Of a stretch of 2,037 nt of DNA, positions 1 to 1,689 are shown in pieces. The stretch's first letter is position 1. The number at the start of each line of letters is the position of its first letter. The stretch is from NCBI RefSeq assembly GCF_003334815.1, contig NZ_QOWO01000089.1. The stretch is one strand, 5' to 3'. This DNA is from Escherichia coli (GTDB lineage Bacteria > Pseudomonadota > Gammaproteobacteria > Enterobacterales > Enterobacteriaceae). The notes beneath the pieces were generated by a model, which saw only the letters and a list, made by a program, of their open reading frames with translations, was not told the DNA's origin and searched no databases. The translations under genes were made by a program, and so were the position numbers.

Positions 1-846
1 AACCAGATGGACCCGGTGTACACGCCGGCGCGAAAAATCCACCTGTACCACTGCGACCATCGCGGCCTGCCGCTGGCCCTTATCAGCAAGGAAGGGACAA
101 CAGAATGGTGCGCAGAATACGATGAATGGGGCAACCTGCTGAATGAAGAGAACCCGCATCAGCTGCAGCAGCTTATCCGCCTGCCGGGGCAGCAGTATGA
201 TGAGGAGTCCGGCCTGTATTACAACCGCCACCGCTATTATGACCCGCTGCAGGGGCGATATATCACTCAGGATCCGATTGGACTGAAGGGGGGATGGAAC
301 CTGTATGGATATCAATTGAATCCGATATCAGACATCGACCCCTTGGGTTTATCTATGTGGGAGGATGCAAAATCGGGGGCATGTACTAATGGTCTTTGCG
401 GCACACTATCCGCTATGATAGGTCCAGATAAATTTGATTCTATAGATAGCACCGCATATGGCGCCTTAAATAAAATAAATAGCCAATCTATTTGCGAAGA
501 TAAAGAGTTCGCTGGTTTAATATGTAAGGATAATAGTGGCAGATATTTCTCAACAGCACCTAACCGAGGAGAAAGAAAAGGATCATATCCATTCAATAGC
601 CCTTGCCCTAATGGTACTGAGAAAGTATCAGCTTATCATACTCATGGTGCAGATAGTCATGGAGAATATTGGGACGAAATATTTTCAGGTAAAGATGAGA
701 AAATAGTTAAAAGTAAAGATAACAATATCAAGTCATTTTATTTAGGTACGCCCAGTGGTAATTTTAAAGCAATAGATAACCACGGGAAGGAAATAACAAA
801 CAGAAAAGGATTACCTAATGTCTGCAGAGTTCATGGTAATATGTAA
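1..846 (+). CDS. Rhs family protein, C-terminal portion (end of conserved core plus variable C-terminal toxin domain); 5' partial, ORF is open to the window start
   Basis: Frame 1 is open from nt 1 (aac cag atg...) to TAA at 844-846. The translation contains the conserved Rhs core end ...[45 protein letters not shown], followed by an unrelated AT-rich tail. The core portion matches E. coli RhsA/RhsB-type core ends as I recall them; which paralog cannot be decided from this window. Confidence 0.9.
337..351 (+). other. Rhs core / C-terminal tip junction motif DPxGL (DPLGL), predicted autoproteolytic release site for the toxin tip
   Basis: Codons gac-ccc-ttg-ggt-tta at 337-351 encode DPLGL at the end of the PxxxxDPxGL hyperconserved Rhs region. 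Nucleotide composition drops sharply just downstream. In Rhs/YD-repeat proteins this motif marks the core/tip demarcation and aspartyl autoproteolysis site (established knowledge). Confidence 0.8.
352..846 (+). other. Variable Rhs C-terminal toxin domain (Rhs-CT), about 164 aa, activity unknown
   Basis: Sequence after DPLGL ([17 protein letters not shown]...[22 protein letters not shown]...NVCRVHGNM) is AT-rich and unrelated to the core. It has six Cys and an HTH...SGKD arrangement (HTH at nt 637-645, SGKD at 685-696). Position and composition are typical of a displaced polymorphic toxin tip. Confidence 0.7.
805..810 (+). promoter_or_regulatory. Shine-Dalgarno-like element (AAAGGA) for the 818 start codon
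   Basis: aaagga at 805-810, 7-nt spacer, ATG at 818. It lies inside the 3' end of the toxin ORF, consistent with translational coupling. Confidence 0.4.
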
Positions 847-1201
847 AAAAATATTGTTTAGGAACTGTGTCATTGTATCTTTGTTTGTTTTTACATACAA
901 CACATGGGCGCAGTGTAATAATAATATTAAAATAATGCGCAAGTATGAAAGTGAAGGTAAATATACCGTTAGAAATTTGGTTAAAAATAAAGCTATAGCA
1001 TTGGAATTAGCTGAGATATATGTTAAGAATCGTTATGGACAGGATGCCGCAGAAGAAGAAAAACCATACGAAATCACTGAGTTAACAACAAGTTGGGTTG
1101 TTGAAGGTACCATTCACTTAGACCAAATTGCTGGTGGGGTTTTTATTATAGAAATAGGCAAAAATGATGGGAGAATTCTGAATTTTGGCCACGGAAAATA
1201 A
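818..1201 (+). CDS. Putative cognate Rhs immunity protein (127 aa), possibly with N-terminal signal peptide or membrane anchor
   Basis: ORF starts 29 bp before the toxin stop codon (818 vs 846) and is preceded by an SD-like AAAGGA. AT-rich like the toxin tip. N-terminus [32 protein letters not shown] has a basic n-region, hydrophobic core and a TWA-Q candidate cleavage site. Size and position match what I recall of yhhH downstream of rhsB in E. coli K-12, unverified. Alternative in-frame starts at 833 and 935 cannot be excluded. Confidence 0.6.
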
Positions 1202-1305: not shown

Positions 1306-1689
1306 ATGTCAAATACATACCAGAAAAGAAAGGCAAGTAAAGAGTATGGTTTATATAATAAATGTAAGAAACTAAATGATGATGAATTATTTCGCTTACT
1401 TGATGATCGCAATTCCTTGAAAAGGATTTCATCTGCCAGAGTATTACAGTTAAGAGGGGGGCAAGACGCTGTTAGATTGGCAATTGAATTCTGCACTGAC
1501 AAAAATTATATCCGTAGAGATATCGGAGCATTTATACTCGGGCAAATATAAATTTGCAAAAAATGCGAAGATAATGTTTTTAATATTTTGAACAATATGG
1601 CATTGAATGATAAGAGTGCTTGCGTTCGAGCTACGGCAATCGAGTCAACGGCCAGGGAAAGATCATCAAAAGTTCACTTTTTGCACTAA
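1306..1689 (+). pseudogene. yibA: YibA-like HEAT-repeat protein gene (Rhs-associated orphan immunity-type gene), disrupted: in-frame TAA at 1549-1551 and 3' truncated
   Basis: Translation from 1306 (MSNTYQKRKASKEYGLYNKCKKLNDDELFRLLDDRNSLKRISSARVLQLRGGQDAVRLAIEFCTDKNYIRRDIGAFILGQI*) closely matches my recollection of the N-terminus of E. coli YibA, encoded next to rhsA. The same frame stays open after the TAA for 45 more codons (ICKKCEDNVFNILNNMALNDKSACVRATAIESTARERSSKVHFLH, stop at 1687-1689), indicating a recent nonsense mutation. Full-length YibA is about 280 aa, so the gene is also truncated. Confidence 0.6.

Follow-up and report, generated by a model that had tools for sequence, protein, structure and literature searches.

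Positions 1306–1652 of a 2,037-nt stretch of Escherichia coli DNA (the window, in which all features described here lie on the plus strand) carry the 5′ part of yibA, interrupted by a nonsense codon and ending at an insertion sequence. On the strength of sequence comparison, this fragment is very probably a dead remnant of the gene that provided immunity to an Ntox34 toxin tip, brought to its present form by a four-step history. The fragment is the already annotated pseudogene yrhC, and the finding is therefore already known. In MG1655, yrhC (b4552; 3623887–3624132, 246 nt) lies between yhhH and yhhI, as it is also listed in the literature, and corresponds to window positions 1306–1551; the window is colinear with the same locus in the K-12 derivative DH1 at 99.5% identity. 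PGAP annotates the fragment as a pseudogene (“internal stop; incomplete”). The two annotations differ in extent, since MG1655 yrhC ends at the TAA whereas the PGAP pseudogene extends to the IS junction. yrhC has been called a pseudogene in a published study (PMC4738310), and a literature search on early RhsB/H-rpt work returned no paper that explicitly describes RhsB as containing part of yibA.

The window originates from the rhsB locus of E. coli. With 99.9% identity to strain ETEC4090, it represents a close non-K-12 relative. The gene order in matching annotated genomes is rhsB, yhhH, HEAT pseudogene, yhhI (the ISEc1 transposase gene) and yhhJ. The 3′ end of rhsB occupies positions 1–846 according to the RefSeq annotation of matching genomes; its conserved core extends to approximately 323, where blastn homology to the K-12 rhsA core stops, and the demarcation motif PxxxxDPxGL (322–351) precedes the variable toxin tip. 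A sharp drop in G+C content occurs at 300–500: the Rhs core has about 58%, whereas the tip, and beyond it yhhH, the yibA fragment and the IS, have 29–40%, and this low G+C content fits a foreign origin of the cassettes. Within the core, just 5′ of the tip, eight single-base differences from K-12/DH1 are clustered at 78–180; they are common to several other strains in varying combinations, which points to mosaic recombination inside the Rhs core. No Rfam family matched the window at E-values up to 1, and a promoter and terminator scan of 1100–1900 returned no more matches on the plus strand near the fragment than in shuffled sequence.

The reading frame that starts at 1306 comprises 81 codons (MSNTYQ...ILGQI), a TAA at 1549–1551, a further 45 open codons and a second TAA at 1687–1689. 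In composition-matched shuffles, a run of 45 open codons had a p of about 0.02, and 127 codons with at most one stop a p of about 0.0002; we regard homology, and not these open-frame statistics, as the decisive evidence for a gene remnant. The original prediction described a YibA-like HEAT-repeat gene with a single internal stop and protein-like sequence beyond it, and called for a comparison of the read-through translation with YibA. With the internal stop read as Lys, residues 1–116 are identical to YibA (PDB 1OYZ, 280 aa) at 112 of 116 positions (phmmer, E=9.7e-71), and they differ only at Q19K, H35R, S64T and K82*. Pfam places HEAT_2 across residues 28–114 of the read-through product, and NCBIfam NF007244 (PRK09687, ‘putative lyase’) matches over profile positions 1–117 of 285. 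Translation and homology thus agree with this part of the prediction. At the nucleotide level, positions 1254–1652 share 97.2% identity with K-12 yibA plus the DNA upstream of it (blastn). The fragment contains codons 1–115 and 2 nt of the 280-codon Imm-HEAT gene, that is, its first 41%. It falls short of the full length of approximately 280 aa, scores 160 bits against the 275-bit cutoff of NF007244 and is interrupted by the TAA at codon 82. The frame had been predicted to continue to 1687–1689; it is indeed open to that point, but yibA-derived DNA stops at 1652, and the last 12 codons (RERSSKVHFLH*, 1653–1689) are IS sequence, as established from the ends of three other ISEc1 copies. The Shine–Dalgarno sequence GGAGG is retained at 1293–1297, 8 nt 5′ of the yibA start codon. 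Overlapping it is an in-frame ATG (1291–1293), five codons 5′ of the true yibA start, where K-12 yibA has GTG; gene callers start at this ATG, giving an 86-aa product (‘MEVPAMSNT...’; cluster P0007, 656 member sequences).

The toxin–immunity pair that precedes the fragment is of a different type. The RhsB tip of the window is DUF4329/Tox-JAB-2 (Pfam, E=1e-39), and its cognate immunity gene yhhH (818–1201), the start of which overlaps the 3′ end of rhsB by 29 nt, encodes an Imm-NTF2-2 protein (PF15631, E=5e-26, domain residues 60–127). The N-terminus of YhhH (window 818–930) contains a 22-residue hydrophobic stretch ahead of the Imm-NTF2-2 domain that looks like a signal peptide; if this assignment is correct, the immunity protein, and hence the site of action of the DUF4329 toxin, may lie outside the cytoplasm. 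The tip of K-12 RhsA, by contrast, is Ntox34 (Pfam). In the tables of Zhang et al. (2012, PMC3482391), Imm-NTF2-2 is the partner of Tox-JAB-2 (DUF4329) and Imm-HEAT that of Ntox34. The yibA fragment therefore lies downstream of the rhsB tip and its cognate yhhH, and its immunity type, the partner of Ntox34, differs from that of the current Tox-JAB-2 tip, in agreement with the suggestion that it is an orphan immunity gene behind another toxin–immunity pair. Between yhhH and the fragment, positions 1254–1285 correspond to the last nine codons and TAG of K-12 rhsA (SRQSNDRKR* in the window, SRQSNDKKR* in K-12), with a blastn boundary at 1254. We take these 32 nt to be what probably remains of an RhsA-type (Ntox34) tip at its 3′ end. 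They are the only tip sequence within 1202–1305, and no core homology, such as would accompany a displaced tip with a partial core and DPxGL motif, was found in that interval.

The element that ends the fragment is ISEc1/H-rpt, a member of the ISAs1 family. Comparison with three other independent copies places its left end at window position 1653. The full element measures 1291 bp and is bounded by imperfect 11-bp terminal inverted repeats, CAGGGAAAGAT (window 1653–1663) and CAGGGCAAGAT, and the window holds its left 385 bp (1653–2037), in which the transposase gene yhhI starts at 1797 and encodes an N-terminus that matches NF033564 (ISAs1 transposase). The boundary with yibA falls exactly at 1652/1653, confirming that the 3′ truncation is tied to the downstream IS. 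An inverted repeat within the IS, CTCCTTACCTAATTAAGGAG (1771–1790), lies just 5′ of the transposase start and contains the Shine–Dalgarno sequence AAGGAG; it could sequester the transposase ribosome-binding site in transcripts entering from outside, and was flagged as terminator-like on the minus strand in the scan. The right flank of ISEc1 is chromosomal DNA by yhhJ that neither resembles yibA nor shows a target duplication, and the IS right end was found beside the 3′ part of yibA in none of 5426 complete genomes. A simple insertion of the IS into yibA was rejected on these grounds.

Strain KTa008 (L019) provides an informative comparison. Its rhsB locus contains a yhhH with a frameshift together with an intact yibA of 280 aa; also present are a fragment of an orphan rhs, a gene with sel1 repeats, a remnant of IS630 and an ISEc1 that has lost 713 bp internally. 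The right junction of this ISEc1 with the yhhJ flank is identical to that in K-12. Since KTa008 combines an intact yibA and an extra ~2.2 kb with the same IS right junction, the truncation is best explained as a one-sided deletion of approximately 2.2 kb that would have run from the left terminus of the IS into yibA. Insertion sequences in general can give rise to adjacent deletions. The KTa008 locus represents a sister arrangement and not the literal ancestor, because its IS carries the 713-bp internal deletion. More broadly, positions 4152–10277 of this locus contain another main Rhs tip, behind which lies an extended array of genes of immunity type, with NTF2-fold, DUF6258 and pentapeptide fragments alongside the frameshifted yhhH, intact yibA, sel1 gene and orphan rhs fragment, and the array ends in ISEc1.

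Alignment to intact alleles shows that codon 82 is AAA (Lys82) in yibA and TAA (1549–1551) in the window, as predicted for a single-base nonsense mutation. The distribution of both versions was determined with a 55-mer centred on position 1549, for which a megablast match requires a matching central base. Of 5426 complete E. coli genomes, 1809 have the T version, at HEAT or “lyase” pseudogenes without a gene name, and 2908 have the A version, nearly all at genes annotated yibA. Carriers of the truncation were counted with a 199-nt query over codon 82 and the IS junction, which identified 1816 genomes; the TAA is found in approximately 99.6% of these (1809), and six match the AAA version exactly. 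The check for strain specificity thus returned a negative answer, and the proposal that the mutation is recent was not borne out, since the TAA is nearly fixed among the truncated copies. Four of the six AAA copies were read, all from rhsB loci (L010–L013, from AS19-RrmA-, OSUCMP42NDM, TW10573 and 2015-01-466). The fragment in L011 has the haplotype of the window except for AAA; L010, L012 and L013 have yibA-type bases at most or all variable sites between 1360 and 1549 and keep T at 1617, and these patches suggest gene conversion from yibA, between the rhsA and rhsB loci. Because six junction-bearing genomes keep AAA, truncation probably preceded the nonsense mutation, although L010, L012 and L013 could be gene convertants, and L011 a revertant, rather than ancestors.

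Comparison with untruncated alleles separates standing variation from decay. Intact YibA sequences were taken from annotated genomes, as a word-indexed protein search gave partial proteins only. An untruncated yibA allele located behind the same Tox-JAB-2/yhhH cassette (P0001; L014–L017) has the window's six substitutions at 1360–1500, and the only sites that distinguish this K19/R35/T64 haplotype from the fragment are 1549 (AAA) and 1617 (C). The reading of Q19K, H35R and S64T as decay after truncation was rejected, because the untruncated allele has the same six substitutions; by this comparison they are allelic variants common to untruncated yibA. The changes specific to the truncated lineage number two, the nonsense A1549T and the synonymous C1617T (Ser104, AGC to AGT). 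T is present at 1617 in all IS-truncated copies read (the window, L001, L002, L005 and L010–L013) and C in every untruncated yibA examined. With only two lineage-specific changes, dN/dS on the fragment is not meaningful. Clusters P0012 and P0021 have frameshifts upstream of codon 82, with the shifted frame running through the T1549 allele, which implies that decay is continuing in some strains. In approximately 1188 genomes yhhH and the relic are followed by a yibA that extends past the junction point, and such longer copies behind yhhH are found at the rhsA (yibF-side) locus in some cases and at the rhsB locus in others. Amongst the untruncated copies read, L006 and L019 are intact, and L003 and L014–L017 are broken independently: yibA in L014–L017 contains a 10-bp tandem duplication (AAATATCAAT) at window-equivalent position ~1854, and the orphan yibA of L003 (5306–6147) is inactivated by a frameshift.

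Other explanations have been put to this evidence. The truncation might have arisen in two stages, by insertion of a second ISEc1 at 1652/1653 in yibA followed by recombination with the resident ISEc1 that deleted the interval between them, a route we consider possible though doubtful. It would yield exactly the observed product, a single IS with neither the 3′ part of yibA nor a target duplication, and E. coli carries multiple copies of ISEc1, the window matching a median of 8 places per genome; however, the intermediate, in which the IS is flanked by the 5′ and 3′ parts of yibA, is present in none of the 5426 genomes, and transposition of H-rpt/ISEc1 is reportedly not observed (PMC3032704). 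A one-sided deletion is the reading that we retain for this step. A very unlikely scenario concerns the relic: positions 1254–1285 would be no relic at all if the order Tox-JAB-2/yhhH/yibA were ancestral and the RhsA tip had recombined in later, borrowing the spacer for its last nine codons, in which case yibA would not be a displaced immunity gene. The block shared with the K-12 rhsA locus (1254–1652) is symmetric and by itself without direction, and the many genomes in which yhhH is followed by a longer yibA are compatible with this order. Against it, the Ntox34 Pfam model ends (80/80) at residue 126 of the 131-residue tip and the shared block starts at approximately residue 122, so that the model ends 4 residues inside the block, which therefore includes the end of the toxin domain. 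In addition, Ntox34 and Imm-HEAT form a recurrent pair across lineages (PMC3482391), and the growth block caused by the C-terminal region of RhsA is neutralised by yibA, according to the passage in which Poole et al. (2011, PMC3150448) cite Vlazny and Hill. We therefore keep to the view that yibA was displaced by the Tox-JAB-2/yhhH cassette.

The remaining alternatives concern the status of the open frame. We attach scarcely any probability to the 81-codon yrhC frame (1306–1551) being a genuine small gene for a two-HEAT-repeat protein under selection, for example as a partial Ntox34 immunity protein or modulator. The frame retains an intact start codon and ribosome-binding site (GGAGG) and is unchanged in approximately 1800 genomes, and a yrhC clone was met once in a persistence selection, without follow-up there (PMC4738310). 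However, this conservation reflects identity by descent, and the 101 nt beyond the stop, which contain a single synonymous change, are conserved to the same degree, so that there is no differential constraint. The additional frameshifts 5′ of the TAA in clusters P0012 and P0021 also argue against a small gene, as do the size of the product, 29% of a 280-aa solenoid that fails the family model, and the verdict of pseudogene reached by both the MG1655 curators and PGAP. An origin of the TAA in faulty sequencing or assembly, or as a mutation private to one strain, can be discounted altogether: the T-centred 55-mer occurs in 1809 independently assembled complete genomes, and MG1655 also has the TAA, where it marks the end of yrhC.

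The history that we favour for the dead yibA remnant would have begun with an Rhs element carrying an Ntox34 tip followed by yibA. A cassette of the Tox-JAB-2 tip and yhhH would then have replaced almost all of the Ntox34 tip, leaving its last 32 nt and yibA as an immunity-only orphan; we infer the direction of this step, Ntox34 tip first, only from the in-frame relic. A deletion from the left end of the ISEc1/H-rpt resident at the rhsB locus would next have taken the 3′ 59% of yibA along with ~2 kb of further orphan modules, fusing codon 116 to the IS end, and an A-to-T change would finally have converted AAA at Lys82 into TAA. The resulting remnant would be without function, and in K-12 an intact yibA is present at the rhsA locus. 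We also considered whether the 399-bp block 1254–1652 takes part in gene conversion of cassettes between rhsA and rhsB, acting as the downstream arm of homology while the Rhs core supplies the upstream one, and judge this very unlikely. At both rhsA and rhsB, the same Tox-JAB-2/yhhH cassette is indeed flanked by core and yibA; this distribution and the three copies with yibA-type patches are compatible with such a role, and neither shows that the block is retained for it.

As an ordinary, well-explained gene remnant, the fragment matters little alone. It offers an example of how Rhs loci may shed old immunity genes through cassette replacement, IS-associated deletion and point mutation, and of a pseudogene history that the original prediction reconstructed correctly from raw sequence alone. 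The population details (TAA in 1809 of 1816 truncated copies, the six AAA exceptions and the untruncated yibA of KTa008) are small additions that we did not meet in the literature searched, and they leave the understanding of Rhs systems unchanged.

Besides yrhC, a close known counterpart of the fragment is YibA itself (b3594; PDB 1OYZ), the Imm-HEAT protein for the Ntox34 tip of RhsA, with the gene for which it shares the start codon, the ribosome-binding site and 52 nt upstream. The two differ in context, since the yibA gene directly follows the Ntox34 tip whereas the fragment follows a Tox-JAB-2/Imm-NTF2-2 pair. Regarding the truncation, the locus resembles IS-mediated adjacent deletion in that one IS end is kept, the deletion begins at the IS terminus and the other junction is unchanged, although at this locus the mechanism is deduced from comparison of loci. 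The arrangement as a whole resembles the orphan Rhs/CDI modules that result from C-terminal displacement (Jackson et al., 2009, PMC2935791; Poole et al., 2011, PMC3150448), in which the immunity gene of a former tip likewise lies behind the current pair. Classical orphan modules, however, consist of a core fragment and the entire displaced tip, often with an expressible immunity gene, whereas in the window the old tip is reduced to 32 nt, the core fragment is absent and the immunity gene is both truncated and interrupted by a nonsense codon.
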